DNA of 13,420 nt. Source: a virus (taxonomy: Duplodnaviria; Heunggongvirae; Uroviricota; Caudoviricetes). Where the stretch lies: the IMG/VR virus record IMGVR_UViG_2695420863_000013; one strand, written 5' to 3'. Below the pieces are notes generated by a model. It was not told where the DNA came from and ran no database searches. It saw only the letters and a program-made list of their open reading frames with translations. Both the position numbers and the translations under genes were made by a program. This document shows positions 1 through 13,420 of this stretch, piece by piece (within the stretch, counting starts at the first letter, position 1; each line of letters starts with the position of its first letter).

Positions 1-116
1 GTAATGGCAACCGGTCCGCCGTATGGCTGCCAGCCCTCTTTCAGTTTGTGTGTCAGCTTTTCCGCAAGGTCTGACGGCGACGCCGCCCTGACAACATCAT
101 AATGTTTAATCGACAT
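1..116 (-). CDS. Hypothetical protein, N-terminal fragment (gene continues beyond the left edge of the window)
   Basis: ATG at 116..114 preceded by GGGAGA Shine-Dalgarno 8 nt upstream; open frame reads MSIKHYDVVRAASPSDLAEKLTHKLKEGWQPYGGPVAI to the window edge. No family assigned. Confidence 0.4.
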   Translation of the reverse strand, partial: MSIKHYDVVRAASPSDLAEKLTHKLKEGWQPYGGPVAI

Positions 117-202
117 CGAATTTCTCCCGTGTAGAGGAACAGAGTTAAAAAGCCGGAAGCGGAATCAAATCACAGGATGACCATCTGCCAGTGGCTGGTC
201 GT

Positions 203-229
203 AAAAAAAAGGCCGCGCCATGCGCAGCC
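203..229 (-). terminator. Rho-independent terminator (GC-rich hairpin followed by T8 on minus strand)
   Basis: Minus strand reads GGCTGCGC-ATG-GCGCGGCC followed by TTTTTTTT (plus-strand A8 at 203-210). Lies downstream of the TerB-like gene and small ORF. Confidence 0.6.
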
Positions 230-430
230 GAAAATAAAGGGATAACGATGATAGTTTGAGAAAAACAGAAATAACACTTTTGTGGCAAAGCATGGTGCCG
301 GGTGCCTCCCGGTGAATTCAGTATCAGCACCTGAATCCGCGATTACCCCATATTCCTTCTTGCTGATTGCCCCACCGCACAGGGGGATTCACCATGCAGA
401 AGTGTTTTTAATAAACAGCAAACAAAAAAA

Positions 431-544
431 TCAAGCATTATGCAGGCTGTTTCTTTTTATCACCGGCCACAGCAATACCATAATGCCGCAGACCAGCACC
501 CCATCCGCCAGCACCGACATGATTCTGCTGGTGAAATCCACCAT
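431..544 (-). CDS. Possible small hydrophobic protein (37 aa, one predicted transmembrane segment)
   Basis: ATG at 544 to TGA at 431; translation MVDFTSRIMSVLADGVLVCGIMVLLWPVIKRNSLHNA. Below the size cutoff of the ORF track. No convincing Shine-Dalgarno; sits between the TerB-like gene and the terminator. Confidence 0.25.
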   Translation of the reverse strand: MVDFTSRIMSVLADGVLVCGIMVLLWPVIKRNSLHNA

Positions 545-593
545 CACCACCAGAAACAGCAGGAGTGCAGCCACAGTCAGGCGCAGTTTTACC

Positions 594-1027
594 GTCACAG
601 GTAATTCTCCAGACGAAGACCCAGAACACCGGCAATCTCTTCCAGCACCTTGCGCTCTTCCGGCTCAATTTCGCCGTCTGCCTCCGCAATGGCCACCGCC
701 ACATCCAGCACATCTTCCGCTTCACGCGTATCGTGTTTCACATCCTCGATCTCACGTAACGCCGCACGACGACCAGTTTTAAAGTTCGTATCCAGCTGAC
801 CGATAATGGTTGCGCTAATCGCATTAATTTCTGACGTAAACGCGTACAGCGCAGGCTGATTACGCAGTACCTGTTCGATCTTCGCTTTCTAGGAAGCCTC
901 ACATTCACCATCTGCACAGGCCACCAGGTATGCGGCGTTAATCACCACCTGTGCCAGATCGCGTTTTTCAAACTTTCTAATTTCCGTTGCCGCTCTGCGG
1001 GCTTTTTTTACCAAAAATACCAAACAT
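594..1027 (-). pseudogene. TerB-family (tellurite-resistance TerB-like) gene disrupted by a frameshift and an in-frame TAG
   Basis: ATG at 1027 with AAGGAA Shine-Dalgarno gives MFGIFGKKSPQSGNGN then stop. The TerB-like frame continues out of frame (ARRAATEIRKFEKRDLAQVVINAAYLVACADGECEAS-stop-KAKIEQVL...EADGEIEPEERKVLEEIAGVLGLRLENYL). The shift maps to a T7/A7 homopolymer at 1003-1009 and the amber codon to 889-891. Resemblance to TerB is from recalled sequence. Confidence 0.6.
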
Positions 1028-1196
1028 CGTGACGTTCCTTTGGGTGGGTGAGCCAACGCCCGGGAGCGATCTGCCCACAGAGAAAGTCACACTGACCACT
1101 CCATAAGCTCCCCCCGAAAGGCTCTGTGGTTGGTATGCGCCGGGCGTGGTGCGGATACAAAAAAGGTCCGCAAAAGCGAGCGAGGGAAAATAAGTG

Positions 1197-1273
1197 TGGT
1201 GCGTTGTACTGGGTTCGAACCAGTGACCGATTGCTTAGAAGGCAATTGCTCTGTCCGGCTGAGCTAAAAACGC
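1197..1273 (-). tRNA. argO: tRNA-Arg (anticodon TCT), 77 nt with encoded CCA
   Basis: Minus-strand cloverleaf: D stem GCTC/GAGC, anticodon stem ATTGC/GCAAT with loop CTTCTAA, T loop TTCGAAC, 3' CCA. One T-C mismatch in the acceptor stem. Symbol inferred from the ileZ-argN-argO order known in lambdoid/Stx phages. Confidence 0.75.
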
Positions 1274-1286
1274 AGAATACCGATAA

Positions 1287-1363
1287 TGGACCGCCATCGG
1301 AGACTCGAACCCCGCGAAACCAGCTTCGAAGGCTGGCGTTCTATCCCGATGAGCTAATGGCGG
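1287..1363 (-). tRNA. argN: tRNA-Arg (anticodon TCG), 77 nt with encoded CCA
   Basis: Minus-strand cloverleaf: perfect acceptor stem CCGCCAT/ATGGCGG (C1-G72), anticodon stem CCAGC/GCTGG with loop CTTCGAA, T loop TTCGAGT, 3' CCA. One mismatch in the D stem. Symbol assigned by order only. Confidence 0.7.
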
Positions 1364-1370
1364 TATGTGA

Positions 1371-1446
1371 TGGTGGCCCTTGCTGGATTTGAACCAGCGG
1401 CCTGGCGATTATGAGTCGCTCGCTCTCACCACTGAGCTAAAGGGCC
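1371..1446 (-). tRNA. ileZ: tRNA-Ile2 (anticodon CAT, lysidine type), 76 nt with encoded CCA
   Basis: Minus strand reads GGCCCTTTAGCTCAGTGGTGAGAGCGAGCGACTCATAATCGCCAGGCCGCTGGTTCAAATCCAGCAAGGGCCACCA. Near-identical in architecture to E. coli tRNA-Ile2 (ileX/ileY) as recalled; perfect acceptor stem. Confidence 0.85.
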
Positions 1447-1455
1447 GGGCGCAGG

Positions 1456-1484
1456 ATAATAACGTTACGAAATCAATGTTGCAA
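1456..1484 (-). promoter_or_regulatory. Sigma-70 promoter for the tRNA cluster (TTGCAA -17- TATTAT)
   Basis: Minus strand has -35 TTGCAA (1484..1479), a 17-nt spacer, and -10 TATTAT (1461..1456), ending 9 nt upstream of the tRNA-Ile 5' end. Confidence 0.55.
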
Positions 1485-1564
1485 GCATTCAAGAATCACC
1501 TGGTTAAAAATTACCCTTGCTTCCTCCACCAGCGCATTCACCATGTCTATCCGAGATAAGTGGC

Positions 1565-1598
1565 ACAAAAAAACCCGCTTGTGGGCGGGTTTTGTTTG
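1565..1598. terminator. Bidirectional intrinsic terminator just downstream of the Q-like gene (candidate tR'-like late terminator)
   Basis: Hairpin CCCGC-TTGTGG-GCGGG at 1574-1589, flanked by A7 upstream and TTTTGTTTGCTTTT downstream, so U-tracts exist on both strands. Position between Q and the tRNAs matches lambdoid pR'/tR' layout. Confidence 0.6.
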
Positions 1599-1656
1599 CT
1601 TTTGCCATCACGTACAAAATCGGCAAAATATCAGATTTGCATGAAATATATGCCTT

Positions 1657-2346
1657 TCAATCTACTTTTGCAACACTTTGCTTTGAAAATGCCGCCTTTT
1701 GTTTTGAACGCGTTCTCATTACAAACAATAAAGCCTCACTATCCAGTCGGTGAAAAATGTGTTTCATTGCAACCCAGTGACGAGTAAATGTTTTGGACCA
1801 GTTTTTAGTTGTCACTCCCACCAGTAATGCCAGCTCCTTGTATTCATAACCTTCCCCACCAAAAAGTTCTGCTTTTACTGCCTGCGCCGCCAGCCAGATT
1901 AATTTTTTCAGGCGTTCCTGCGTTTTCCCTGCAATTTTTCTGGTACCGGATTGAGTATTAAATTCATTCCACGCCCACTGTGTTATCGCGATCTGATATT
2001 CCCAACAAATACTCCCGCTGTAACACCACAACAACCAGGCTTTATGATGTTCTTCAAGAGACAGAACAGCCCGCCGCCACGATGATGTCGAAAACTCAAT
2101 CGGACTGACCAGAGGAATTGACGTCCCCTTCGCCAGCGATTGCTTTCCCGGGATTGGGGGATTATCCCGCGTTATCATTTTTCCAGTCACTTCATCGCGG
2201 TACCGGATTTTTTTACGCCTGTAACGCCCTGTATCGAACATGGCATTCTCCTGCCAGGCTTCAAGCTGACCTTTTGTTGCCCCACTCAAATCAGCGGTGG
2301 CGATAATGAGCTGCTCACGCACAAACTGTAAATACTGGTTATTCAT
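1657..2346 (-). CDS. Q-like late antiterminator (by position and loose family resemblance)
   Basis: Probable start ATG at 2346, overlapping the rusA TGA stop as ATGA (the track ORF begins 2 codons earlier at GTG 2352). Immediately upstream of a terminator and the tRNA cluster and downstream of rusA, the canonical Q position. No zinc finger of the lambda-Q type was seen, so the family is uncertain. Confidence 0.55.
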   Translation of the reverse strand: MNNQYLQFVREQLIIATADLSGATKGQLEAWQENAMFDTGRYRRKKIRYRDEVTGKMITRDNPPIPGKQSLAKGTSIPLVSPIEFSTSSWRRAVLSLEEHHKAWLLWCYSGSICWEYQIAITQWAWNEFNTQSGTRKIAGKTQERLKKLIWLAAQAVKAELFGGEGYEYKELALLVGVTTKNWSKTFTRHWVAMKHIFHRLDSEALLFVMRTRSKQKAAFSKQSVAKVD

Positions 2347-2708
2347 GCGCACCCCAGTTCTGTGATTTTTATCCCCAACCGCCCACCAGGAACAAGCTGA
2401 CCGCGCACAATATTGATTTCATCAAACTGCTCGTCGTCTATGAGCAGCCCCGCATGCGTCAGTGCATCCAGTGGTGCCTTCAGGATATTGTCCAGGTCAC
2501 GACGGCGCTTATCCGGTGGCTCTGCAATAATTTTTATTGCCAGCCTTCCGGACAGGTTTAATTTCAACCGCTGCTGGCGAACAATTAGTGCCACATCACG
2601 GCGATAACGCTCACCGACTTTTGATACAAAATATGTGCTGCCACGACGTCGCCAGTAAGTATTCACCGTTGGCGGGTAAGGCAAAACAAATTCTATGCGT
2701 TCAGTCAT
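2343..2708 (-). CDS. rusA: Holliday junction resolvase RusA
   Basis: 121-aa protein MTERIEFVLPYPPTVNTYWRRRG...PDKRRRDLDNILKAPLDALTHAGLLIDDEQ...GGRLGIKITELG. The RRRDLDN motif and overall pattern match RusA of DLP12 as recalled. Start abuts the upstream gene's stop. Confidence 0.85.
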   Translation of the reverse strand: MTERIEFVLPYPPTVNTYWRRRGSTYFVSKVGERYRRDVALIVRQQRLKLNLSGRLAIKIIAEPPDKRRRDLDNILKAPLDALTHAGLLIDDEQFDEINIVRGQLVPGGRLGIKITELGCA

Positions 2709-3764
2709 TTATGCTTTCCACTTCAGGACGCCCGAATTTCTCGCGTGCATTAAAAAACGAATCAGCAACAACAGCTGGCTGCCGTGTTTTTCTTCAAAAT
2801 CTTTTACCCCGGCGTGCAGTTCGTTATGACATTTACGGCACAGCGGAATAACAAACAAATCGTCAGCCTTCGTTCCCATCCCTCCTAGTCCATGACCAAT
2901 GATGTGATGCGGATCATCTGCCTGATTGTCACACGTCATGCATTTCTGCGTTTTTACCCAGCGCGTGTATACGGGCATCTCTTCCCGTTGTGGTTTCTGG
3001 CGCTGGAGATACTGAGCCGGTGACTCCGGATCAACGGCAATGCTTACCACCGTCTTTTCCTGTGGCGGGTTTTGCTGGTGGGCGTGAGGCATCGGCGCAA
3101 GATTTTTTGTGCGCTGCTTCAGTATGCTGGTGGCGGTCTGCTCTCCCGGCACGATGTCGCTTTCACGGTACATTGAGCGGATTTTTTCCGCACGCAACCC
3201 CAGCGAACGACGTAATACCGCTTCCGGTAGCGCGTCCGCCACCTGATTGCGGACCGCCCACCAGGATAATTCAGCCAGCGATAATTCCCGTTCCTGCGAG
3301 CCATTCATTGCATGGCGTATGACGTCAATCATCCATGCAGACAGGTTTTGGTGAGCAAGTTGCCCGAGTGATTCGGAGGTCTGGTCGCGCAGCTGGTTGT
3401 CGCAGTGCCAGCACAACACCATTGCGCCGGTACCATAACGGTGAATGACGGTTTCACTGTGGTGATAATCGCCGTGTGGCCACTGGCAGGATTTAACATG
3501 GCGCAGTAACCAATCAGACAATGCGCCAGCGCCACCAGCAGCACGAATCACTCGTTCGTCGCTGAAAAATGGCAGTAATGATTTATCCTCCGCCAGCGGC
3601 TGGCGAACGGCAGGAACGACCCCGGACGGCAGATTACGCATGCTTTTCGGTTCCGGCTCCACCAGTACCCGGGTATTGTGGAATACCGGCATGGATTCAC
3701 GGCCCGGCTTAACGATCACCAGCCCGAGTTCCGGTACCAGAACAGGTCGAAGTAATACCCGCAC
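2709..3764 (-). CDS. DUF968-type phage protein (YdfU-like) with a C-terminal HNH nuclease motif
   Basis: 351-aa ORF with GTG start at 3764 preceded by GGAGGT Shine-Dalgarno. C-terminus has CMTCDNQ...HHIIGH...CRKCHNELH (CxxC...HH...CxxCHxxxH, HNH-like). Same position as ydfU in the Qin prophage (quuQ-ydfU-rem-hokD), as recalled. Confidence 0.6.
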   Translation of the reverse strand: MRVLLRPVLVPELGLVIVKPGRESMPVFHNTRVLVEPEPKSMRNLPSGVVPAVRQPLAEDKSLLPFFSDERVIRAAGGAGALSDWLLRHVKSCQWPHGDYHHSETVIHRYGTGAMVLCWHCDNQLRDQTSESLGQLAHQNLSAWMIDVIRHAMNGSQERELSLAELSWWAVRNQVADALPEAVLRRSLGLRAEKIRSMYRESDIVPGEQTATSILKQRTKNLAPMPHAHQQNPPQEKTVVSIAVDPESPAQYLQRQKPQREEMPVYTRWVKTQKCMTCDNQADDPHHIIGHGLGGMGTKADDLFVIPLCRKCHNELHAGVKDFEEKHGSQLLLLIRFLMHARNSGVLKWKA

Positions 3765-4080
3765 GTTACCTCCAGATGCGTTGCTGGAATGTGCGGGACG
3801 GACGCGGTGGGCGTTCGGAGTAAGGGAGTCTGACTGAGATTATCCAGTGACGATAGTCGAGACTAAGAGCTTTCTTAACCTCGTATCCACGCCTGCGGTA
3901 ACACTGAATTATCCATTCAGCCTGCTCTTCAGTGCATGGAGGATGCTGGAACCAGTCTGATGTGAATGCGTGAAAACGCCGTCCGCACCTGCTGGCAAAG
4001 ACAGCAGAATCATTAGAATTGTGTAATTTGGTATCGTGCGCCATCGGTTGTCTCTGCTGGCGCAGCAGGTGCCAGTTGTT
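3067..4080. repeat. Direct repeat copy A of a ~1-kb segment (5' two-thirds of DUF968 gene + small basic protein gene)
   Basis: Sequence from 3067 is identical or near-identical to 4413 onward (ctggtgggcgtgaggcatcggcgcaagattttttgtgcgctgcttcag...); homology continues with increasing divergence into the small-protein genes. Confidence 0.7.
3766..4044 (-). CDS. Small basic phage protein (Rem-like position), copy 1 of a paralogous pair
   Basis: Start placed at internal ATG 4044 (MAHDTKLHNSNDSAVFASRCGRR...) by alignment with the paralog at 5103..5375; the longer track ORF (to 4173) would run through the hok terminator. Stop lies 1 nt before the DUF968 start. Confidence 0.5.
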   Translation of the reverse strand: MAHDTKLHNSNDSAVFASRCGRRFHAFTSDWFQHPPCTEEQAEWIIQCYRRRGYEVKKALSLDYRHWIISVRLPYSERPPRPSRTFQQRIWR

Positions 4081-4116
4081 CAGGCTGGCGTGCGAATTGT
4101 AAACCAGAATGCCAGG

Positions 4117-4143
4117 AAAAAACAAAACCCGCCGAAGCGGGTT
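4117..4143 (-). terminator. Intrinsic terminator downstream of hok copy 1 (copy 1 of a repeated hairpin)
   Basis: Hairpin AACCCGC-CGAA-GCGGGTT (4126-4143) followed on the minus strand by TTTTGTTTTTT. Confidence 0.6.
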
Positions 4144-4211
4144 AAGTGCGGGTGCATTGAGGATGCCTGACACATCAGAGGTGGCGAGGGATTTCTCCCC
4201 CGCCTGGTCTC

Positions 4212-4367
4212 TTACTCCTCAGGTTCGTAAGCTGTGAAGACAGCGACCTCCGTCTGGCCGGTTCGGATTCGTACCTCGCAGAGGTCTTTCCTCGTTACCA
4301 GTGCCGTCACTATGACGGTTAAACAGATGACGATCAGGACGATTAACATCGCCTTTTGCTGCTTCAT
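4212..4367 (-). CDS. hok: Hok-family type I toxin (HokD/RelF-like), copy 1
   Basis: 51-aa MKQQKAMLIVLIVICLTVIVTALVTRKDLCEVRIRTGQTEVAVFTAYEPEE; matches HokD/RelF as recalled except one A-to-V change. Start set at the MKQQ methionine within the longer track ORF. Confidence 0.85.
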   Translation of the reverse strand: MKQQKAMLIVLIVICLTVIVTALVTRKDLCEVRIRTGQTEVAVFTAYEPEE

Positions 4368-4402
4368 AGCCTGCTTCTCCTTGCCTTTCGGCACGTAAGA
4401 GG

Positions 4403-5101
4403 CTAACCTAACTGGTGGGCGTGAGGCATCGGCGCAAGATTTTTTGTGCGCTGCTTCAGTATGCTGGTGGCGGTCTGCTCTCCCGGCACGATGTCGCTTT
4501 CACGGTACATTGAGCGGATTTTTTCCGCACGCAACCCCAGCGAACGACGTAATACCGCTTCCGGTAGCGCGTCCGCCACCTGATTGCGGACCGCCCACCA
4601 GGATAATTCAGCCAGAGATAATTCACGCTCCTGCGTACCGCTTATTGCGTGACCGATGACGTCAATCATCCATGCTGACAGGTTTTGATGAGCAAGTTGC
4701 CCGAGTGATTCGGAGGTCTGGTCACGCAACTGGTTGTCGCAGTGCCAGCACAACACCATTGCGCCGGTACCATAACGGTGAATGACGGTTTCGCTGTGAT
4801 GATAATCGCCGTGTGGCCACTGGCAGGATTTAATATGGCGCAACAGCCAGTCAGACAATGCACCAGCACCACCAGCAGCACGAATCACCCGTGCGTTACT
4901 GAAAAACGGCAGCAATGTTTTGTCTTCCACCAGCGGCTGGCGAACGGCAGGAACGACCCCGGACGGCAGATTACGCATGCTTTTCGGTTCCGGCTCCACC
5001 AGTACCCGGGTATTGTGGAATACCGGCATGGATTCACGGCCCGGCTTAACGATCACCAGCCCGAGTTCCGGTACCAGAACAGGTCGAAGTAATACCCGCA
5101 C
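4403..5101 (-). CDS. Truncated DUF968 paralog (232 aa; lacks the C-terminal HNH region), probable gene remnant
   Basis: N-terminal ~230 aa nearly identical to the 2709..3764 protein, then ends at TAG 4403-4405 exactly where homology to the hok cassette begins. GTG start at 5101 abuts the upstream gene's stop. Confidence 0.6.
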   Translation of the reverse strand: MRVLLRPVLVPELGLVIVKPGRESMPVFHNTRVLVEPEPKSMRNLPSGVVPAVRQPLVEDKTLLPFFSNARVIRAAGGAGALSDWLLRHIKSCQWPHGDYHHSETVIHRYGTGAMVLCWHCDNQLRDQTSESLGQLAHQNLSAWMIDVIGHAISGTQERELSLAELSWWAVRNQVADALPEAVLRRSLGLRAEKIRSMYRESDIVPGEQTATSILKQRTKNLAPMPHAHQLG

Positions 5102-5420
5102 GTTACCTCCAGATGCGTTGCTGGAATGTGCGGGACGGACGCGGTGGGCGTTCGGAATAAGGGAGTCTGACGTAGATTATCCAGTGACGATAATCGAGGG
5201 TGAGGGCTTTCCTAAACTCATATCCACGTCTGCGGTAGTTATGAATCAGCCATTCGGCCTGTTCTTCAGTACAGGGATCGTGCTGATACCAGTCATATTT
5301 GAATGCGTGAGAACGCCACCCGTGCCTGCTGGCAAAGGCAGAATCAGAATTGCGAAATTTGAAATTATGCGCCATTGTCATCTCCAATGGCGCTGCAGGT
5401 TGCCAGTTGTTCAGGCTGGC
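4413..5420. repeat. Direct repeat copy B of the same ~1-kb segment
   Basis: Pairs with 3067-4080; junction with the hok cassette at 4404-4412. Confidence 0.7.
5103..5375 (-). CDS. Small basic phage protein (Rem-like position), copy 2 of a paralogous pair
   Basis: ATG at 5375 (MAHNFKFRNSDSAFASRHGWRS...) with GGAG 6 nt upstream; C-terminal half closely matches copy 1 (…LDYRHWII.VRLPYSERPPRPSRTFQQRIWR). Confidence 0.5.
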   Translation of the reverse strand: MAHNFKFRNSDSAFASRHGWRSHAFKYDWYQHDPCTEEQAEWLIHNYRRRGYEFRKALTLDYRHWIIYVRLPYSERPPRPSRTFQQRIWR

Positions 5421-5434
5421 TCACGTATTATAAC

Positions 5435-5608
5435 TTATTCCCGAACTACCTTGAAACCGAGTCTTTCCAAGTATTCAATGAATGCCTCAACAGATAACAC
5501 TACATGATCATCAGGAATTAACGCTGTGTAGGTAATACCCCCATTCTCAACGCGCACAGCATAGAGGCCATCTTCACTAAAAATTTCACGTAATTCTTCG
5601 ATTTTCAT
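5435..5608 (-). CDS. Hypothetical small protein (57 aa)
   Basis: ATG at 5608 with AAGGA Shine-Dalgarno 8 nt upstream; MKIEELREIFSEDGLYAVRVENGGITYTALIPDDHVVLSVEAFIEYLERLGFKVVRE. No family recognised. Confidence 0.45.
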   Translation of the reverse strand: MKIEELREIFSEDGLYAVRVENGGITYTALIPDDHVVLSVEAFIEYLERLGFKVVRE

Positions 5609-5691
5609 CAACAGAATCCTTCCAGATAAATAGCACTCCCCCTGTTCGGGGTCCATCCCTCTTCTCCCTGCGCGCTACTTAAGTATTTTTG

Positions 5692-5721
5692 ATTCTATTC
5701 TGGCACCGTCCAAAACTTCAA
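5692..5721 (-). promoter_or_regulatory. Candidate sigma-70 promoter for the 57-aa ORF (TTGAAG -18- TAGAAT)
   Basis: Minus strand has -35 TTGAAG (5721..5716), an 18-nt spacer, and -10 TAGAAT (5697..5692), just downstream of the module terminator. Confidence 0.3.
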
Positions 5722-5729
5722 ACACGTTG

Positions 5730-5761
5730 AAAATAAAAACAAAAAACCCGCCGAAGCGGGT
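5730..5761 (-). terminator. Intrinsic terminator downstream of the HTH-peptidase gene (copy 2 of a repeated hairpin)
   Basis: Hairpin ACCCGC-CGAA-GCGGGT (5746-5761) followed on the minus strand by TTTTTTGTTTTTATTTT; starts 5 nt after the 5766 stop. Confidence 0.7.
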
Positions 5762-5765
5762 ATAC

Positions 5766-6869
5766 TCAAACAATCTGGAAAATATTTCTTGGATTTGTAA
5801 TAGGTCTGTTGATGGAGAACAACTCACGAATTAAATCTTGGCTCAAGCCAGTTTTCATAAGAATTCTTAGCCAGGTTGCATCATCCAGCATTTCAATCGC
5901 CTCGGCCAGCATGCCGGGTTCTTCAGGGCGCAAAAGTTCATCACCAGGTTCAACTCTCGTATACCCTCTGGAATTAAGATGCATATAGCCAGTTCTTGCC
6001 TGTTCCTGGGTCAATAAGCCTAATGCGCTGGCTCGATAAATACACATTTTAAGGCTGATTTTCCATCTAAGTTTAAATTCAACCAGAGCATTCCAGTCGA
6101 ATTGCTTACCTCGTATTCGTGGAAATTCTTTAATGAAAGATAACCTGGGAACTAATAAGGCGCTCGAAAAGTGATCGGCTTGTGATTCCGTAAGTTTATC
6201 ACCTGTCGTTATGCCCTCATGCATTACTAAATGCCCTAATTCATGACCTAAATCAGAGCGAAATCTACATATGCTTTTTTTAACATTGTTCCTGATGATA
6301 ACAGGCCTGTTATTGTGAACAGTAAAAGCATCAACACGATCATCGACTCCCGTAACATGCGCAACGATTACCCCTAAACTCTCCGCCAATTTAACCATTG
6401 ATGATATAGGGCCAAGACCTAAATTCCAGGCACGGCGACAATCTTCTGCCACTCGCTCAATATCATTCGGAGTAAGTAATTCAGCCCCTGGGTGCTCCGG
6501 TATGTTAACGTCAGGAAATTCGATTTCACCTTCAACAGCAGAAATTATAATATTAAGAATCTCAGCCCTGGCCAATACACTATTAGTCAGCGTTTGAGTC
6601 CTGGACTTCTTACTCCGAAAATGGCAGACATCACTTTCCAGAGCGTATTTTCGTTCAGTAAAAAGAAAACTGGACTTAATCATAAGCGCTGAAGATATTA
6701 ACTCAAGACATTGCTCCGATGGCCTGCACCCCTTCTCCAGTTTGCTAACGAATTGCTTTGTCTTGCCAATTTTTTCGGCTAACTCTTCACAAGAAAGCCC
6801 AACAGCCATTCTCGCTAGTTTGAGCTTATCACCCCGATACTCAGTGAAGTTATTCACCTGATGTTCCAT
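5766..6869 (-). CDS. XRE-family HTH fused to an ImmA/IrrE-type (COG2856, Peptidase_M78-like) zinc metallopeptidase
   Basis: N-terminal HTH (LKLARMAVGLSCEELAEKIGKTKQFVSKLEKG). HEXXH zinc motif in RSDLGHELGHLVMHEG, and the downstream signature ESQADHFSSALLVP typical of COG2856. Start probably ATG 6869 (track gives GTG 6872); overlaps the upstream gene by about 20 nt. AT-rich relative to flanks. Confidence 0.75.
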   Translation of the reverse strand: MEHQVNNFTEYRGDKLKLARMAVGLSCEELAEKIGKTKQFVSKLEKGCRPSEQCLELISSALMIKSSFLFTERKYALESDVCHFRSKKSRTQTLTNSVLARAEILNIIISAVEGEIEFPDVNIPEHPGAELLTPNDIERVAEDCRRAWNLGLGPISSMVKLAESLGVIVAHVTGVDDRVDAFTVHNNRPVIIRNNVKKSICRFRSDLGHELGHLVMHEGITTGDKLTESQADHFSSALLVPRLSFIKEFPRIRGKQFDWNALVEFKLRWKISLKMCIYRASALGLLTQEQARTGYMHLNSRGYTRVEPGDELLRPEEPGMLAEAIEMLDDATWLRILMKTGLSQDLIRELFSINRPITNPRNIFQIV

Positions 6870-7500
6870 CACTGCTCACATCCAAATCTTTATCCTTCGT
6901 ACGCCGACGAAGAGGCACCTTATTAATCTCCGCTTCGTCAGGGAGTGTGTTATAATCAAGAGGCATAAGCGGCATCGATGCTGTAGATTGATGAGAAACT
7001 ATACTAATCTGAGCACCATAAGTATTAAATCCAACAAGAGCTACCTCCCAACGAGGCAGTGTGGACTCTAATTCACCATCGCCCTCTTCGGATAAAAAAG
7101 GCTCAGCTATGACTCGCCATGTAATATCTTGCTCAGCCTCAACATCACCAAACAATGAGAGCTGCTCATACTCTACTTTATTTCGACGCAGACGATGTTT
7201 CTTTTTGGGGTTATTAATGCAATCTTTGGTAAATTGTAGCGGAACTTTATTTAAAGCAACTACATAGTCCAACCCCTTGGAAATCATCTCAAGGCCAGGA
7301 ATTGCATCTTCATTTTGAATAAGATGATTTCTGACCCAATCATAAGCCCTTACACCTTCAGACCAGTTGCTGTCTAATGCGTGCTTATGATAGTACAGCT
7401 GCTCAAGTACGTTAGCGATCTCCGCCAACAAGTGGCGAACATAGTTTTCAGCAAGATAAGGTTGAAATTCCCAACAAGGAGCTAACTGATTTTCATTCAT
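6850..7500 (-). CDS. Hypothetical 216-aa protein, first gene of the two-gene module (candidate effector/toxin)
   Basis: ATG at 7500 (MNENQLAPCWEFQPYLAENYVRHLL...). No recognisable motif; has a basic patch KKKHRLRRNK and an acidic C-terminus. AT-rich. Translationally overlaps the HTH-peptidase gene. Confidence 0.55.
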   Translation of the reverse strand: MNENQLAPCWEFQPYLAENYVRHLLAEIANVLEQLYYHKHALDSNWSEGVRAYDWVRNHLIQNEDAIPGLEMISKGLDYVVALNKVPLQFTKDCINNPKKKHRLRRNKVEYEQLSLFGDVEAEQDITWRVIAEPFLSEEGDGELESTLPRWEVALVGFNTYGAQISIVSHQSTASMPLMPLDYNTLPDEAEINKVPLRRRTKDKDLDVSSDGTSGE

Positions 7501-7535
7501 TTCAAGTTTCGCTTTTTTTAGAATTCGTAAACCAC

Positions 7536-7564
7536 ATATTTTCGCATTTTTCTATTTTTGTCAA
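7536..7564 (-). promoter_or_regulatory. Candidate promoter for the two-gene module (perfect -35 TTGACA, weak -10)
   Basis: Minus strand has TTGACA (7564..7559), a 17-nt spacer, and AAATAT (7541..7536), about 35 nt upstream of the 7500 start. The -10 is poor, so the call is tentative. Confidence 0.3.
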
Positions 7565-7573
7565 CCAGACTAA

Positions 7574-7597
7574 TGCAAAAACCCGCCGAAGCGGGTT
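7574..7597 (-). terminator. Intrinsic terminator downstream of hok copy 2 (copy 3 of a repeated hairpin)
   Basis: Hairpin AACCCGC-CGAA-GCGGGTT (7580-7597) with a short U-tract (5 T) on the minus strand. Confidence 0.5.
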
Positions 7598-7858
7598 AAG
7601 TGCGGGTGCGTTGAGGATGCCTGGCACATCAGAGGTGGCGGGAGATTACTCCCCCGCCGGGTCTCTTACTCCTCAGGTTCGTAAGCTGTGAAGACAGCGA
7701 CCTCCGTCTGGCCGGTTCGGATTCGTACCTCGCAGAGGTCTTTCCTCGTTACCAGTGCCGTCACAATGACGGTTAAACAGATGACGATCAGGGCGATTAA
7801 CATCGCCTTTTGCTGCTTCATAGCCTGCTTCCCCTTGCCTTTCGGCACGTAAGAGGCT
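7580..7858. repeat. hok cassette repeat (terminator hairpin + hok + ~40 nt upstream), second copy; first copy at 4126-4404
   Basis: About 279 bp nearly identical between 4126-4404 and 7580-7858, including the hairpin and the whole hok ORF; homology ends at ggctaacct on the upstream side in both copies. Confidence 0.75.
7666..7821 (-). CDS. hok: Hok-family type I toxin (HokD/RelF-like), copy 2
   Basis: 51-aa MKQQKAMLIALIVICLTVIVTALVTRKDLCEVRIRTGQTEVAVFTAYEPEE, identical to HokD/RelF as recalled. Start set at the MKQQ methionine with a GGGGAAG Shine-Dalgarno-like element upstream. Confidence 0.85.
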   Translation of the reverse strand: MKQQKAMLIALIVICLTVIVTALVTRKDLCEVRIRTGQTEVAVFTAYEPEE

Positions 7859-8058
7859 AACCTACATTTGTGAGACATAGATTGGGCCTCAGATTAATGT
7901 TAAGCGTCTTGCAGGACGCGAAATGTTAACTGGGGCTTTTCTCTATCTGCCTTTCAGTGTTCATGCCTGAGACAGATAGCCTCAAGCACCCGCAGCCATT
8001 CTACTTAACTCACGTCACCTCGCCAATATGAAATCAATCAGAAAGGTGATCCATAAAA

Positions 8059-8745
8059 TCACTCCTTCTCTTCTTTTCCGTAGTGGAGTTGGCCAATTTT
8101 GATAAGAGGGCGTCCCTGAGATTTGCGGTGTAGATTGGTATCGCGCAGAGAATACACACAGCCACAATATTCCTGCTGATAGAATTTTTCGCGCTTGCTG
8201 ATTTCAATCATACGGGACGAGCCGCCCTGCTTGCGCCAGTTATAATCCCAGTACACCATACCCGGATAATGCGCAACAGCTCGCCGCCCACACTCGTTAA
8301 CCTGCTGCATATTTTTCCAGCGTGAAATGCCCAGTGAACTGCTGATCACACTGAAACCATTTTCAGCAGCGTACAACGCTGTCCGCTCAAAACGCATGTC
8401 AAAACACATGGTACAACGGATCCCCCTCTCAGGCTCCCATTCCATTCCTTTGGCACGTTCAAACCAGTTGTCGGTGTCGTAATCAGCATCGATAAACGGC
8501 ACGCCGTGTTGTTCAGCAAAGCGAATATTTTCATCCTTACGAATTAAATACTCTTTCTGAGGATGAATGTTCGGGTTGTAGAAAAAGATGGTGTAGTCGA
8601 TTCCCGAGGCCTGAAGCGCCTCCATCACTTCACCGGAACATGGAGCACAGCAAGAGTGCAGTAGTAGTTTGTTTGCCCCGTTTGGGAGCTCCAATTTAGG
8701 CCGTTTGAAATCAGCAATAGTCATAAATATTTTTATTGGGGTCAT
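8059..8745 (-). CDS. DUF208/QueH-like protein (putative epoxyqueuosine reductase family)
   Basis: 228-aa ORF with an N-terminal [11 protein letters not shown] motif and a C-terminal [11 protein letters not shown] motif, which I recall as characteristic of QueH. No good Shine-Dalgarno at either candidate ATG (8745 or 8724). Confidence 0.55.
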
Positions 8746-8898
8746 GAAAATAGCACAGAGTGTAGCATCAGAGCAGGGCTATCGGGAATATATGTCTAAA
8801 TCTGGTAATATCTGGTTTTGACGCAAAGCGGACAACCACGCTGGCTCTACCCTGCGCCATGAAAATGTCAATTCACATCTGAACTAATGCTCTTTAAT

Positions 8899-9324
8899 CT
8901 AGTAACGTCTAAAATACCTAACATTTCCTTGATAAAATGCCAGTACACGCTGCATAGCTTCGCTCTTCCGGCACTCGCGACAGATTATATTCAGGCGCCT
9001 GTCGTAGCGGCGTATTTCGCCGTCTGGTAACGACCAGATAAGGTCCGGATCAACCACTGCAGGTTTCTTCACCTTTGCCCTTGAGAGTTTTTTGCGAGCA
9101 TTTTGCCAGTCCTTACGCGCCTGTTCAGACGGGAATAACCCGTAACCAGAGTTGTATACATCGCCACTGGCAACCAGCTCTCTGGCGAGAACACTCATCA
9201 GATATCTTGTCGCACCTGTCTTGGCTTCCAGTTGCCGCAACGTCTCGCGACCGCTCAGACGTACAAGTTCAACAACCTGCCCTTTAATTTTTTCCCGCTC
9301 TTCTTGTGTAAATACTTTTGCCAT
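8899..9324 (-). CDS. Hypothetical phage protein (141 aa)
   Basis: ATG at 9324 (MAKVFTQEEREKIKGQVVELVRLSG...) with GGAGG 7 nt upstream (track ORF starts at TTG 9339). No family recognised. Confidence 0.5.
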   Translation of the reverse strand: MAKVFTQEEREKIKGQVVELVRLSGRETLRQLEAKTGATRYLMSVLARELVASGDVYNSGYGLFPSEQARKDWQNARKKLSRAKVKKPAVVDPDLIWSLPDGEIRRYDRRLNIICRECRKSEAMQRVLAFYQGNVRYFRRY

Positions 9325-9339
9325 AAGCGCCTCCGGCAA

Positions 9340-10110
9340 TCACTTTTCCGATACAACACGGCGGGAAGAATCAGTAATCTGTCGAACAATATCCCGGTGC
9401 TTGTTCAGCTCCCGCAGCGCGGCGCAGACTCGCTCCCACTTCTGAACATCACTTTTCGCCCTGCGCAGCGCCAGGTTTGCCCTGCGAAGGGACGGAAAAA
9501 TCAGCTCATCTGCTTGCGTTTCGGTAAACGATGGCAACGGCTGCACAATGTCCGCCACAGTTTCTGTTTTAATTTCTTCCTGTGTTGCGGCTTCCCGGAC
9601 TGGTAACGCAGCACCTGCTGGCTGAGGAAAGGCCTTACCATCACTTTCCGTTACCAGCGCGGCTTTCGGCTCTGCTGGTAAATTATCGCCCGGCATGCAG
9701 TAACGAAATTTACCGTTCTGATTAACGCGTGCCAGCCGCCCCGTTGCGGTTACCACCGCCAGCGTGGAAGCAACCTTGCGAGTACTGACACCGAACTTAC
9801 CCGCCAGTTCCTCACACGTTTTAGCCCCATCCTGACCGATAAACTCAATCATCATGTCTGCGGTAACTTTTTGTTCGACCTCCCCGGTCAGCATATCCTG
9901 TGCTTCAGATTTTACTGGCCGCTCTTCGGTTACCCGGGATTCACCTTCGCCAGCCAGAAACCAGGTGTGACCAGTTTTATCAACGACGCCTTTTCTTTTG
10001 AGTTCCCACAGCTCGTTGAGAACCTCTTCACGACTGATATCAAGTCGCGCGGCCAGTTCTACCGATGTGGCTTTTCCCATTGCTTTCAGTGCGTCAAATA
10101 CGGTTTCCAT
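9340..10110 (-). CDS. Hypothetical phage protein (256 aa) with two winged-helix-like segments
   Basis: ATG at 10110 ([43 protein letters not shown]...) with GGAGG 9 nt upstream (track ORF starts at TTG 10128). A second similar segment is [32 protein letters not shown]. Family unassigned. Confidence 0.5.
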
Positions 10111-10143
10111 TAAAATTTCCTCCGACAAAATCGTTTCTCAGAT

Positions 10144-10809
10144 TCAAATAAAACCAGCTGCCTTCCGGCGTTCGTATTCCTGTTTCAGCCGTTCAATTGG
10201 CGTTGGCCCTTGCGGGTGTTTCGCCCCTTCCAGTTGTCGTCGCACTGGCGGAACACTCATCCCGTTACCAACATGCTTTGCCCATTTCGTCAGTTGCCGT
10301 TCCGCAAGTCGTTTTAACTCACCCTGCGTCATCTGGCGCTCAATCCCTCTGGTACGCATTTCGAGGCAGATGTGGTACAGCACAGGCTGAGGCCACGGAT
10401 ATTTGTCGCTTCCGTCATATCGCCAGGACTCATCACGCCAGCGGCGGTACTCCTCCATCACAGCATCCACCGTCAGGCCAAATGGATTGGCCCCGCTTTC
10501 TGAAATCAGCGCCACAAACTCAGCCAGGTCCGGAGGCCATGTTTCACCCGCCCGGCAGCGGTCCATGCACTGGCGGCAGACCTGTCGGATTTGCTGCTCA
10601 GTCATCGCGCCAATCTGTGCAATCCAGAGCTTCGAAGGTGCGGCCCCGTTCTTCTGGGTCCAGCGGTTCGAATAAACCTCCCCCATGAGTTCCCACAGCT
10701 TCCAGACCGTTTCCGTCGCTGATAAATCCGTTTTCACGTTCCCACTGCTCACGTGCTGCCCGAATTTCCTGAACTGCCCGTGATGCGGTGCCACCTGGTG
10801 CTGCTGCAT
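10144..10809 (-). CDS. Replication protein P-like (lambda P family helicase loader)
   Basis: C-terminal region (…DKYPWPQPVLYHICLEMRTRGIERQMTQGELKRLAERQL…PPV…) resembles lambda P as recalled. ATG 10809 has a GGGGG Shine-Dalgarno; this start lies 211 nt inside the upstream O-like ORF, so the true start is uncertain. Confidence 0.65.
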   Translation of the reverse strand: MQQHQVAPHHGQFRKFGQHVSSGNVKTDLSATETVWKLWELMGEVYSNRWTQKNGAAPSKLWIAQIGAMTEQQIRQVCRQCMDRCRAGETWPPDLAEFVALISESGANPFGLTVDAVMEEYRRWRDESWRYDGSDKYPWPQPVLYHICLEMRTRGIERQMTQGELKRLAERQLTKWAKHVGNGMSVPPVRRQLEGAKHPQGPTPIERLKQEYERRKAAGFI

Positions 10810-11644
10810 GGTTTACCCCCTTGCTGACTGGCTTAACCTGCGCCCTGACGTGATTTACGTGACGGGCGAATTTCTGCTCCCACTGAACCTGCGTGAAAAC
10901 TTTCCCCTCCGCTGCCCAGTAGTCCCGGAAAGCGGCAAGTTCAGCAGGTGTAAATTCCGGCTCCGGCAAAGCCATCCCCCACAACGCAGCCCGTCGTCGA
11001 AAATCCGGCGACGGATGCCAGTCATCGACCATCGGAAATTTCCCGATGGGTTCGCTCAGTCCATCCAGGGATGCAGGTTCTGCTGCCTGCAACGGCGTAC
11101 CACTCGACTCACTGGTCGGAGCACTCTCGCGCACGTGCGCGTTATGTGTGGGGTTTAATTCTTTATCTGTATCTTTATCTGTCGTGACTCGTCGTGACAT
11201 GTCGTGACATATGCGTGACTCGTCGTGACACCCCTCATTCTGTTTTCGTAATTTTTCCCTCTCGCGCTGCGCTCTCTTGCGCTCTGCCGGGGATTTCGCG
11301 GTTTGTGAAACGTTGCCATTGTCCTCTTTCAGTACCTGGCGTTTTTCCCATCCGGTGATTAAATCTCCATCAAGTACCCGCCCCTGCATTGCCTGTAAAA
11401 TTGAATCAATTACTTCTTCCGTCACATCAAGCGCACTTGCTAAATCTTCCGTCGTGACATCAATGTGACCACGTAGTGACACGCCGTGACATGTCGTGAC
11501 ATTTCGTGACGCGCTCACCAGAAGGTGGATATACACTGCCATCACTGTTGCAATTGGCTGCCCTGACACCCTGGCAATTGTTCGCCACTTAGGGTCATTT
11601 GGCATGTCATGCCATAATCTGAGCCAGGCGTTAGCCATACTCAC
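10598..11644 (-). CDS. Replication initiator (O-like position) containing internal iteron arrays
   Basis: 348-aa ORF directly upstream of the P-like gene and downstream of the YdaT-like gene. GAGGTG Shine-Dalgarno with GTG 11644 or ATG 11638 as start. Two clusters of periodic repeats lie inside it. The low-complexity C-terminal tail overlaps the P-like gene and may not be real coding sequence. Confidence 0.55.
   Translation of the reverse strand: MSMANAWLRLWHDMPNDPKWRTIARVSGQPIATVMAVYIHLLVSASRNVTTCHGVSLRGHIDVTTEDLASALDVTEEVIDSILQAMQGRVLDGDLITGWEKRQVLKEDNGNVSQTAKSPAERKRAQREREKLRKQNEGCHDESRICHDMSRRVTTDKDTDKELNPTHNAHVRESAPTSESSGTPLQAAEPASLDGLSEPIGKFPMVDDWHPSPDFRRRAALWGMALPEPEFTPAELAAFRDYWAAEGKVFTQVQWEQKFARHVNHVRAQVKPVSKGVNHAAAPGGTASRAVQEIRAAREQWERENGFISDGNGLEAVGTHGGGLFEPLDPEERGRTFEALDCTDWRDD
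11150..11232. repeat. Candidate replication origin: AT-rich stretch with two CTTTATCTGT repeats, then five GTCGTGAC-type direct repeats at about 10-bp spacing
   Basis: GTCGTGAC (or a one-base variant) begins at 11181, 11191, 11201, 11213 and 11222, preceded by ttaattctttatctgtatctttatctgt. Located mid-gene in the O-like ORF, as ori-lambda is in O. Confidence 0.5.
11449..11510. repeat. Second array of six CGTGAC/GTGAC repeats at 10-11 bp spacing (iteron-like)
   Basis: GTGAC cores end at 11458, 11469, 11480, 11490, 11500 and 11510, in the 5' part of the O-like ORF. Confidence 0.45.
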
Positions 11645-11709
11645 CTCTTCTGATACCGAATCTTTTTACTCACAAATTGCCGGAAGTGATCCGGTATGAA
11701 TATTGCGAG

Positions 11710-12135
11710 TCAATGCACAGCCACAATATTTCCTGCAGGGCCACCACGATTCATCTGGTTGAAACCAGCGATCGCCACTGCGACAAAATCATCAGCGTCT
11801 CTCACCAGTCGTTCCCGCGTCTCCACCAGCTCCCGAAAATAAGCTGAACTGTGGCTGCGCATTCGGGCCACCAGCAGAGGCGGCATTGCTTTTTCGATCG
11901 CTGGTAACAACGCCTGAATTTTTTTAACCGCATCAGGAGTGTCTTTCTCCACCCAGCGGAAAATTTTCTGGGTATTGCGAGCCAGGGCTTCCGGATGGCT
12001 GTCGTCATATAATTCCGGGAACGTCATACCAAGCTCAAAATAAGCCCGGGTTATTTCAGCTGCCGGAACTTTTTCACCGTCCGGATGCGCCCAGGCATTC
12101 ATCGCCATGCGGATGTGCTCATGCCTGATTTTCAT
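11710..12135 (-). CDS. YdaT-like protein (CII-position protein of Rac-type prophages)
   Basis: 141-aa MKIRHEHIRMAMNAW...KIQALLPAIEKAMPP...NIVAVH. Start and end pattern and length match Rac YdaT as recalled. GGAG Shine-Dalgarno 9 nt upstream; overlaps the upstream HTH gene by 17 nt. Confidence 0.6.
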   Translation of the reverse strand: MKIRHEHIRMAMNAWAHPDGEKVPAAEITRAYFELGMTFPELYDDSHPEALARNTQKIFRWVEKDTPDAVKKIQALLPAIEKAMPPLLVARMRSHSSAYFRELVETRERLVRDADDFVAVAIAGFNQMNRGGPAGNIVAVH

Positions 12136-12394
12136 GAATCAACTCCGATGCATTTGGTGTGTTAGCCTTGAATCCAACAGGTAAGCCGTCGGTTGGATTC
12201 GGGTAAATATCAGGCCGGAGTTCATGAGGTGTAACCTCGAAATTCGTTACTTCAGCAACACGTAATGCTTTTTCAGGGCTGAATCTTTCATAGCCCCCCA
12301 GCACTCGACTTACATGCACCTGAGATAAACCCGTTAGCTTCCCAAACTGTAGCTGGGTGATATGTTTCTCTTTTAAATAGTCTCTTAAGTTCAT
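12119..12394 (-). CDS. Cro/YdaS-like HTH regulator
   Basis: ATG at 12394 (MNLRDYLKEKHITQLQFGKLTGLSQVHVSRVLGG...) with GAAGG Shine-Dalgarno (track ORF starts at TTG 12400). HTH motif; first gene of the leftward early operon, divergent from the repressor. Confidence 0.65.
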   Translation of the reverse strand: MNLRDYLKEKHITQLQFGKLTGLSQVHVSRVLGGYERFSPEKALRVAEVTNFEVTPHELRPDIYPNPTDGLPVGFKANTPNASELIHENQA

Positions 12395-12501
12395 AGCCAA
12401 CCTTCTACGTTATGCCTCGAGCAAATATTAGCCCCGCTAATTTTAAAGATCAATAGCCAGACTATCTTTGATAATATTGGTAAAACAAATAAACTCTATG
12501 T
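12395..12501. promoter_or_regulatory. Divergent immunity-switch region (operators and promoters between the Cro-like gene and the repressor)
   Basis: 107-bp AT-rich intergenic region between divergent HTH genes; contains the palindrome ATTAGC-CCC-GCTAAT (12427-12441) and a TAATAT -10-like element upstream of the repressor start. Confidence 0.5.
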
Positions 12502-12963
12502 ATGAAAAAAACACGCGAAGTGATTGCAACTCCAGAAGCGAGCAAGAATTTAAAAGCCGCATGGAATGCAAGAAAAAAAGAGCTGAAGCTGACTCAAGAG
12601 CTGGCGGCTGAGTTGTTGGGATTCGAATCTCAAGGCACCGTTAGCCAGTATCTGAACGGCAAGATACCGGTAAATACCGACGCTGCGCTAAAATTTGCGG
12701 CTCTGTTAAAGGTAAAACCAGAGGACATTCGAGAAGACCTTAAAGACTTAATGAATTATGTAAGATCATCAGATACTTATGATGATAACTTTTCAGGCAA
12801 AGGATGGAGGCTGGTCAATGAAGAACAGGCAGAGTTACTTAACCTCTTCGAGATTCTACCTGCGTCAGAAAAAGCCAAACTCCTTAACCAGCTACGTGGA
12901 CTAAACAAGCTCTACGAGGAAGCCTTCGAGAACATGCTGGCACTAAAGAAACGTAACCAGTAG
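12502..12963 (+). CDS. Prophage repressor, RacR-like (XRE-type HTH)
   Basis: 153-aa MKKTREVIATPEASKNLKAAWNARKKELKLTQELAAELLGFESQGTVSQYLNGKIPV...; HTH near the N-terminus; divergent from the Cro/YdaS-like gene; followed by a strong terminator. Confidence 0.65.
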   Translation: MKKTREVIATPEASKNLKAAWNARKKELKLTQELAAELLGFESQGTVSQYLNGKIPVNTDAALKFAALLKVKPEDIREDLKDLMNYVRSSDTYDDNFSGKGWRLVNEEQAELLNLFEILPASEKAKLLNQLRGLNKLYEEAFENMLALKKRNQ

Positions 12964-12989
12964 CCACCGCTCACTACCCCATCCACAAC

Positions 12990-13019
12990 AAAAAAACCGA
13001 CGTCTTAGTCGGTTTTTTT
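12990..13019. terminator. Bidirectional intrinsic terminator after the repressor gene
   Basis: A6 - AACCGAC-GTCTTA-GTCGGTT - T7, a perfect 7-bp stem flanked by A and T tracts. Confidence 0.7.
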
Positions 13020-13116
13020 GTGCCATAACTTCTGCAAATCAGCTGTATAACTAATATTTTTCCCTTGAAAAAACATTTACATAGTTACCAAAACAAAAAT
13101 ATCATACGCCATACTG

Positions 13117-13145
13117 TTGACTTAAAATATCCGCGTTACTAATAT
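13117..13145 (+). promoter_or_regulatory. Strong sigma-70 promoter (TTGACT -17- TAATAT), candidate pL-like early promoter
   Basis: -35 TTGACT at 13117-13122, 17-nt spacer, -10 TAATAT at 13140-13145; about 70 nt upstream of the 51-aa ORF. Confidence 0.55.
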
Positions 13146-13216
13146 TTCTATCAAGAACAGCACGGCGCTGTAGGTTTTAGTTCCGCCACCCGGCGTTAAG
13201 GGGAAATGAGGTCAGC

Positions 13217-13372: not shown

Positions 13373-13373
13373 T

Positions 13374-13420
13374 ATGGATTTCGACACAATCATGGAAAAG
13401 GCTTACGAAGAATACTTCGA
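13374..13420 (+). CDS. Hypothetical protein, N-terminal fragment (continues beyond the right edge)
   Basis: ATG 13374 lies 1 nt after the preceding stop; reads MDFDTIMEKAYEEYF to the window edge. Confidence 0.35.
   Translation, partial: MDFDTIMEKAYEEYF

Follow-up and report, generated by a model that had tools for sequence, protein, structure and literature searches.

The hok/sok (parB) locus of plasmid R1 belongs to the Hok/Gef family, whose intact relatives share the logic of a hok leader, mok, Sok and a 3' fold-back. Toxicity in R1 is abolished by mutating the mok start codon or by placing stop codons in mok upstream of hok, and the authors concluded that mok translation is needed at least as far as the hok Shine-Dalgarno sequence (PMC9841398). 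The hokW-sokW loci of the Stx phages Sp5, VT2-Sakai and 933W lie in the lambdoid prophage early region and are complete, with mokW and a 71-nt SokW RNA. HokW is reported to be a type I toxin which, in Sp5, is made after mitomycin C treatment and assists lysis and phage release on induction (PMC8621323). The hokD (relF) gene of the K-12 Qin prophage is the third gene of relB-relE-hokD; it is reported to be co-transcribed with relBE, and its ancestral 70-codon frame to have been truncated by the relBE insertion (PMC5120126, PMC6379469). The gene order in MG1655 is relB, relE, hokD, rem, ydfU (DUF968) and Q.

We analyzed the E. coli prophage IMGVR_UViG_2695420863_000013, a stretch of 13,420 nucleotides (hereafter the window) that carries two hok copies. 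The genes of interest are all on the (-) strand, so upstream means higher coordinates. In the direction of transcription, the order starts with the complete locus of hok copy 2 (hok ATG at 7821, from the open reading frame (ORF) list and Pfam), followed by an ORF with no assigned function (6850-7500), a gene for a helix-turn-helix (HTH) and ImmA/IrrE peptidase protein (5766-6872), a rem-like ORF whose N-terminus is similar to K-12 Rem (5435-5656), a small ORF (5103-5387), a truncated DUF968 gene of 232 amino acids (DUF968', 4403-5101) and hok copy 1. Downstream of copy 1 are a second small ORF (3766-4044) and an intact DUF968 gene of 351 amino acids (2709-3764), and the order ends with RusA, Q (1657-2352) and three tRNAs.

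Copy 2 served as the reference. Its hok/mok/sok locus (7577-8026, -) was delimited with Rfam RF01794, promoter and terminator scans and the fold of Sok. The promoter scan found a promoter-like TTGGCG-17-TAGAAT (8026-7998, -), and the leader runs from about 7991. Within the locus, mok starts in frame at an ATG at 7878 and hok at the ATG 7821-7819, and the terminator is at 7597-7580. Sok of copy 2 is encoded on the (+) strand (7870-7940), with a 14-nt 5' tail, a long terminator hairpin and a terminal UUUU (fold z = -4.88), and it is complementary to the hok2 mRNA at 71/71 positions (-139.6 kcal/mol). Copy 2 is the true counterpart of hokW-sokW in this prophage, copy 1 having neither mok nor a Sok RNA. 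Full loci are the norm among complete E. coli genomes: the complete copy-2 locus was present at a coverage of at least 80% in 4,354 of 5,426, and the only truncated hok class in the survey's spread sample was the K-12 type.

The ORF list places copy 1 at 4212-4367 (-, ATG at 4367-4365), encoding 51 amino acids before the stop. Judged by its sequence, this small protein is a member of the Hok/Gef toxin family: it scores 81.2 bits against Pfam HOK_GEF (PF01848; residues 6-47, E = 3.9e-23), above the curated cut-off of 22, and a single residue (A10V) separates it from copy 2 and K-12 HokD. The ORF has 100% nucleotide identity with the annotated hokD of Z1322HEC0003, and the ORF and 3' untranslated region together have 98% identity with K-12 hokD. 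Against hokW-sokW, the hok ORF, Shine-Dalgarno region and sok promoter are 98-100% identical. The 3' untranslated region is retained as well (4124-4211, -), with its fold-back (fbi) segment and a terminator hairpin (4143-4126) followed by a T-run; as far as the terminator, its identity to copy 2 and to K-12 hokD is 97-98%.

Pairwise alignment and a repeat finder gave 97% identity between copy 1 (4124-4410) and copy 2 (7578-7864) across 287 nt, with mismatches such as 4334 against 7788. The upstream limit of this homology is TAGGTTAGCC, 43 nt 5' of the hok ATG, and its downstream limit is in the T-run past the terminator hairpin; beyond -43, the upstream sequences of the two copies are unrelated. 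The original prediction had put this upstream homology at only about 40 nt, in good agreement with the alignment. From the other side, the DUF968 regions can be aligned without a break up to G4412 (...CACGCCCACCAG). Past the equivalent point the intact gene reads CAAAACCC (CAAAACC), whereas DUF968' reads T-TAGGTTAG. The non-homologous junction is at 4411-4412, with G4412 the last DUF968-derived base, A4410 the first base of the hok locus and T4411 a filler that matches neither parent sequence. No microhomology is retained at the junction in the product. DUF968' is cut at codon 230 and continues with Leu, Gly and a stop codon (TAG, 4405-4403) from hok leader sequence, 35 nt before the hok ATG. 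It matches only positions 1-61 of the 171 in the Pfam profile, whereas the intact copy matches 1-169 and HNHc_6; the HNH-like part and the rest of the C-terminal two thirds of the domain are missing. Chance is not a concern for these assignments, since the alignments are long and nearly perfect and their boundaries are exact to the base.

The comparison set for the origin of the junction consisted of two related prophages taken from complete genomes, and each side of the window was covered by one blastn alignment. Window positions 1-4410 match the Z1322HEC0003 prophage (L003, 2302-6711) at 99.14%, ending exactly at 4410, and positions 4412-13420 match the MSB1_7C prophage (L001, 4523-13531) at 99.58%, starting exactly at 4412. 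Each parent type is annotated with one hok and one DUF968 gene, and the hok of the Z1322 type has a full normal leader (Rfam 110 bits, and by alignment). The order of hok, small gene and DUF968 is the common one: window positions 3700-4440 were matched at a coverage of at least 80% in 4,169 of the 5,426 genomes, and homology ended at 4410 among the matches listed. As reconstructed from these alignments, the junction arose when two lambdoid prophage genomes underwent a single illegitimate (non-homologous) recombination. The Z1322-type parent (parent B) contributed hok, the small gene, DUF968, RusA, Q and the tRNAs. The other parent (parent A) contributed the immunity and replication genes, the complete hok/sok locus, the ImmA-type module, rem, the small gene and DUF968. 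Position -43 of the hok of parent B was joined onto codon 230 of the DUF968 gene of parent A. The sequence is essentially identical to both parents, which suggests that the structure is recent.

The same event left copy 1 between two DUF968 copies. A direct repeat of about 1 kb (4412-5420 and 3075-4089) flanks it on both sides. The two repeat units are offset by 1337 nt and are 94% identical, reaching 100% in blocks of about 200 nt. Copy 1 looks unstable in this position, since homologous recombination between the flanking repeats could delete it.

Among the collections searched, the junction is private to the source genome. Megablast of the junction region (4250-4570) against the 5,426 complete E. 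coli genomes did not recover the junction. Just two matches had a coverage of at least 80%, and these were made of two pieces across 959 bp, in the normal order of hok, small gene and DUF968. The junction was also absent from phage records. As an exact 32-mer it was absent from IMG/VR and from GTDB representative genomes, and as a 21-mer it had no match in JGI metagenomes. An 18-mer gave only two chance matches in GTDB representative genomes, in an archaeon and an actinobacterium, and an exact-protein look-up of the 232-residue product returned no record. The junction rests on a single assembly, as no other searched sequence contains it. These searches would fit an assembly or chimeric-read artefact, in which the real genome carries two separate prophages and no 4411/4412 join. 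On its DUF968 side, the junction is also bordered by roughly 200 nt with 100% identity to the other DUF968 copy, a repeat of the kind that confuses assemblers. However, assemblers mis-join inside shared repeats, whereas this join is at the edge of the repeat and leads into unrelated sequence. The join at the repeat edge, the unrelated sequence beyond it and the filler base would have required reads containing the junction. The product is moreover a coherent, gene-complete lambdoid early region. We consider an artefact quite unlikely.

The loss on the upstream side of copy 1 is extensive. RF01794 models the sense-strand hok leader as far as the hok AUG, and its gathering score is 59. With this model, copy 2 reaches 120.5 bits (7991-7816), whereas copy 1 has a residual 16.4 bits. 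This score and the base-exact alignments bear out the suggestion that the native upstream region of copy 1 is lost and that the copy adjoins a truncated gene. Compared with copy 2, copy 1 lacks the hok promoter and the 5' leader with tac/ucb. Also gone are both initiation signals of mok, the ribosome-binding site and the start codon, as well as the target of Sok and all 71 nt of the Sok RNA, terminator included. The mok ATG (7878) and GAGG (7891-7888) of copy 2 both fall upstream of the breakpoint, so neither has a counterpart in copy 1. The stretch in the place of the Sok RNA (4416-4486, +) is antisense to the 3' end of DUF968' and has neither a Sok-like fold nor a terminator: the corresponding 71 nt have a fold z of -0.01, no better than shuffles, and the terminator scan found no (+)-strand terminator in 3700-5500. 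The Sok RNA of copy 2 would not compensate for this loss. Its longest exact complement in the DUF968'-hok1 RNA is 7 nt, and the predicted duplex (-42.3 kcal/mol) is no better than those with shuffled targets (mean -49.1). Copy 1 has no Sok of its own and no complementarity to that of copy 2, which places it outside Sok control both in cis and in trans. Post-segregational killing is impossible for copy 1, since it has no Sok and no Sok target. By its sequence, copy 1 falls short of a complete hok/mok/sok type I toxin-antitoxin locus. As it has no leader, no mok and no Sok RNA, annotation as a toxin-antitoxin system would be wrong. Automatic pipelines apply the name 'hokD type I toxin-antitoxin system toxin' to all copies of this kind, whereas copy 1 has no antitoxin.

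One control element was nevertheless kept. The original prediction held that any leader-encoded control elements were absent, which is right for the mok start, its ribosome-binding site and the Sok RNA but not for the sok promoter, which is complete. It lies at 4381-4409 (+), with the -35 TTGCCT (4381-4386), a 17-nt spacer and the -10 TAACCT (4404-4409), and the surrounding 4379-4410 is identical to 7833-7864 of copy 2 at 32/32 positions. The position of the -10 was taken from the mutagenic primers YO-421/YO-422 and the probe YO-597 of the hokW-sokW study; the primers for promoter-less sokW replace the hok-sense TAGGTTA, which reads TAACCT(A) on the sok strand (PMC8621323). The 71-nt sokW annotated in the VT2-Sakai record starts 49 nt 5' of the hokW ATG, and in an alignment of four loci the sok elements share one register. 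A consensus promoter scan was dropped as a test of the sok promoter, which it lists in neither copy. TAACCT shares only three of six positions with TATAAT, which explains the miss; the negative scan is uninformative for sok, and the published mutagenesis primers and the sokW annotation were used in its place.

The break falls one base past the sok -10. As a result, the sok promoter is complete and all of the transcribed Sok bases are swapped for antisense DUF968' sequence. With the -35, spacer and -10 all retained, an antisense transcript into the DUF968-derived sequence is predicted, starting at about 4415-4417. The predicted transcript is not a Sok RNA and does not overlap the hok ribosome-binding site.

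The captured promoter raises the idea that the recombination created new regulation in one step. It would act as a replacement antitoxin against DUF968'-hok1 read-through, silencing hok1 by transcriptional collision or by RNase III cleavage of the sense/antisense duplex immediately 5' of hok. The elements of the promoter are intact, mutation of the identical promoter abolishes the antitoxin activity of sokW (PMC8621323), Sok promoters are described as strong (PMC1635323), and this one is convergent with any read-through transcription. However, the predicted transcript (from about 4416) runs away from hok and misses the Shine-Dalgarno sequence and the AUG. It has neither a terminator nor a stable fold, the bases between the -10 and +1 are altered, and a single recent event gives no evidence of selection. 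We regard such regulation as highly improbable. A wider version, in which illegitimate recombination in the early regions of lambdoid phages tends to break at hok loci and the captured strong sok promoter makes a new antisense RNA that silences both the toxin and the truncated gene, is a speculation to which we give little credence. If it were true, a break just past the sok -10 would be the one-step birth of a replacement control element by transcriptional interference.

The local structure around the hok ribosome-binding site was also kept. A hairpin is predicted at 4367-4405 (-), with the same fold in copies 1 and 2, an outer stem of UAGCCUCUU / AAG-C-AGGCUA and an inner hairpin of UGCC-GAAA-GGCA. 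In this predicted fold, an interior loop holds the Shine-Dalgarno AGGAG (4381-4377), and the A of the hok AUG is paired. The counterpart of the hairpin in Rfam RF01794 is the final helix of the alignment. Alignment with copy 2 shows what copy 1 has kept: the hairpin with the Shine-Dalgarno sequence, the ORF, the fold-back region and terminator at the 3' end, and the sok promoter in full. Of the control apparatus of R1, nothing is left but the sok promoter, this hairpin and the 3' end. We also inspected a possible substitute fold-back, between GAUGCCU in DUF968' and AGGCAUC in the hok 3' untranslated region, in the minimum-free-energy fold of 349 nt. It does not use the native tac/fbi residues and was rejected as a chance 7-mer.

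The sole translated frame upstream of copy 1 is DUF968', which stops 22 nt before the hok Shine-Dalgarno sequence. The hok frame has no upstream ATG, and no (-) ORF crosses the Shine-Dalgarno sequence except from an in-frame GTG (4394) that has no ribosome-binding site. Given the mok rule of R1 and the lack of a frame translated across the Shine-Dalgarno sequence, poor Hok output from copy 1 is expected, and translation from its own Shine-Dalgarno sequence would probably be inefficient. The UAG of DUF968' is itself part of the hairpin stem, and a ribosome terminating there would melt the outer stem. In the thermodynamic model, the mean unpaired probability of the initiation region is 0.43, and 0.51 with a ribosome placed at the DUF968' stop. 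This change is too weak for a claim of translational coupling from DUF968' to hok, which we rejected. The model predicts no strong block, and copy 1 could be more translatable than the R1 rule implies.

The upstream sequence also gives little sign of independent transcription. No convincing hok-sense promoter was found in 4412-5100 (-), where the single 9/12 site is no commoner than in shuffles, and no convincing terminator was found between 5100 and 4367 (-). The lack of a convincing promoter makes the original prediction, that expression could come only from read-through, plausible. Copy 1 is probably transcribed only as a passenger of (-) transcripts that begin further upstream. The main candidate source would be the phage early operon, from the cro-like gene (12119-12400, -) via the replication genes to Q. 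In the ORF list and the annotations of the parent types, the genes between the cro-like gene and Q, these two included, are all (-), which places copy 1 within the early transcription unit. Copy 1 would then be largely silent in the lysogen and transcribed upon induction. One observation counts against transcription restricted to induction: a promoter-like TTGAAG-18-TAGAAT (5721-5692, -) lies directly past a strong terminator (5761-5746). If active in the lysogen, this site could transcribe rem, the small gene, DUF968' and hok1.

Taken as a whole, copy 1 is best explained as a recombination-truncated cassette of the hokD/hokW type, with passenger transcription and weak translation, in a structure that looks recent and unstable; we put the probability of this reading at roughly 60%. 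The lack of a promoter together with weak translation would explain how an unguarded toxin gene is tolerated. Expression at induction would be harmless to the phage, since HokW is reported to be made at that stage and to aid release. We infer that copy 1 is weakly translated, tolerated in the lysogen and possibly expressed on induction.

A simpler reading is that copy 1 is never made into protein and is an inert scar, a neutral by-product of recombination that will decay or be deleted. It is a serious alternative, though we think it doubtful. The missing promoter and the missing mok-type coupling agree with it, as R1 demands mok translation (PMC9841398), and so do the end of DUF968' 22 nt short of the Shine-Dalgarno sequence, the hairpin retained over this sequence and the AUG, and the restriction of the junction to the source genome. 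The intact hok ORF is uninformative on selection, because the flanks are still about 99% identical to the parents. On the other hand, the predicted accessibility of the initiation region is moderate rather than low, and a ribosome terminating at 4405-4403 would open the hairpin. The hokD/relF gene of K-12, with an even shorter leader, is also said to be toxic if transcribed, a result attributed to Gerdes in 1986.

Among described systems, hokD is the clearest precedent for copy 1. The original prediction compared the arrangement to the chromosomal hokD/relF locus, and the likeness is real: K-12 hokD keeps 14 nt of upstream sequence joined to the end of relE, and is reported to be transcribed together with relBE (PMC5120126, PMC6379469). 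The two toxins are of one subfamily. In both cases, unrelated coding sequence has replaced the leader, and a mok start, a Sok RNA and an own promoter are lacking. Expression depends on upstream transcription in hokD and probably in copy 1. The downstream context is common as well, with rem or a small gene, DUF968/ydfU and Q. The differences are equally clear. Copy 1 keeps 43 nt with the sok promoter and the hairpin, whereas hokD keeps neither of these elements. The upstream neighbor is DUF968' in copy 1 and relE in hokD, and hokD is widespread in the K-12 lineage, whereas the copy 1 junction is private. The different breakpoint (-43 versus -14) and neighbor mark an event independent of that of hokD. 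By this comparison, copy 1 is a functional analogue of the hokD/relF type, in which foreign coding sequence replaces the leader, and not an orthologue; its arrangement is a known type repeated at a different breakpoint.

Copy 1 is a second, independent natural case of a hok gene separated from its RNA antitoxin and from mok, and it indicates that unguarded hok copies can persist, at least temporarily, within a prophage early operon. Its breakpoint falls between the sok promoter and the Sok RNA, with the Shine-Dalgarno hairpin still in place, which would make it useful for testing the need for mok in the hokD/hokW subfamily. In other respects, copy 1 is an ordinary scar of phage mosaicism.

In connection with the speculation on hok loci as favored breakpoints, the window alone contains three hok-associated scars. 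The first is the -43 junction, the second is the 1.8-kb ImmA/HTH module between two copies of the hok terminator hairpin, and the third is homology to the -14 junction region of K-12 relBE/hokD.

The leaderless hok gene (copy 1) lies between the two arms of a roughly 1-kb direct repeat, 3075-4089 and 4412-5420, which share 94% identity and each carry a small ORF followed by the 5' part of DUF968. Homologous recombination between these arms would remove hok copy 1 and restore a single intact DUF968 gene. The repeat has a mosaic structure in which stretches of about 200 nt are 100% identical, a pattern suggestive of earlier gene conversion between alleles of different phages.

The hok terminator hairpin (ACCCGCTTCGGCGGGT followed by a T-run) occurs three times in the window, at 4117-4142, 5736-5761, and 7571-7596. 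No hok gene precedes the occurrence at 5736-5761. The region that includes this hairpin and the sequence following it (5541-5761) corresponds to positions 3833-4050 of the K-12 sequence used for comparison (L002) with 90.5% identity, and the K-12 span runs from the hokD terminator into rem. A 1.8-kb module (5762-7575) is therefore flanked by two copies of the hok terminator. The module contains an HTH-ImmA/IrrE gene (5766-6872) and an unknown ORF (6850-7500). The module looks like an insertion into the hok terminator hairpin or the product of recombination there.

The 3' untranslated region of hok copy 1 gave a match to the Rfam family isrK at 4122-4203 on the minus strand. Its score of 27 bits (E = 8e-4) is below the gathering score of 50. 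Since the similarity comes from the terminator and the two hairpins, the match is probably a structural coincidence. A read-through RNA is predicted to run from the truncated DUF968 gene into hok copy 1. In its 349-nt minimum-free-energy fold, GAUGCCU at the 3' end of the DUF968 part (4424-4430) forms a duplex with AGGCAUC of the hok fold-back segment (around 4162-4168; both on the minus-strand RNA). This 7-bp complement could imitate a long-range closure; we judged it to be a chance pairing.

The Tyr47 codon is TAC in a UACG context on the minus strand in both copies (4227-4229 in copy 1 and 7681-7683 in copy 2). Copy 1, despite its missing leader, retains this candidate editing site unaltered. 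According to a preprint, hokC, hokD, and hokE mRNAs undergo A-to-I editing as first described for hokB, where it is mediated by TadA, and editing at the Tyr47 codon recodes Tyr to Cys (bioRxiv 10.1101/2025.08.07.668861).

The Q antiterminator gene is followed immediately by three tRNA genes (1200-1446, minus strand), which is the typical arrangement in Stx-type lambdoid phages; related RefSeq records annotate them as Arg, Arg, and Ile. Downstream of this cluster, 254-426 on the minus strand matches the Rfam sRNA family STnc100 (RF02076) with 100.8 bits against a gathering score of 47, with a poor fit over the 3' part of the model. The STnc100 match is also found in the related Z1322HEC0003 prophage. 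The complete hok locus (copy 2) is adjoined on its upstream side, in the prophage early region, by an epoxyqueuosine reductase QueH gene (8059-8745, minus strand), as annotated in a related RefSeq prophage.
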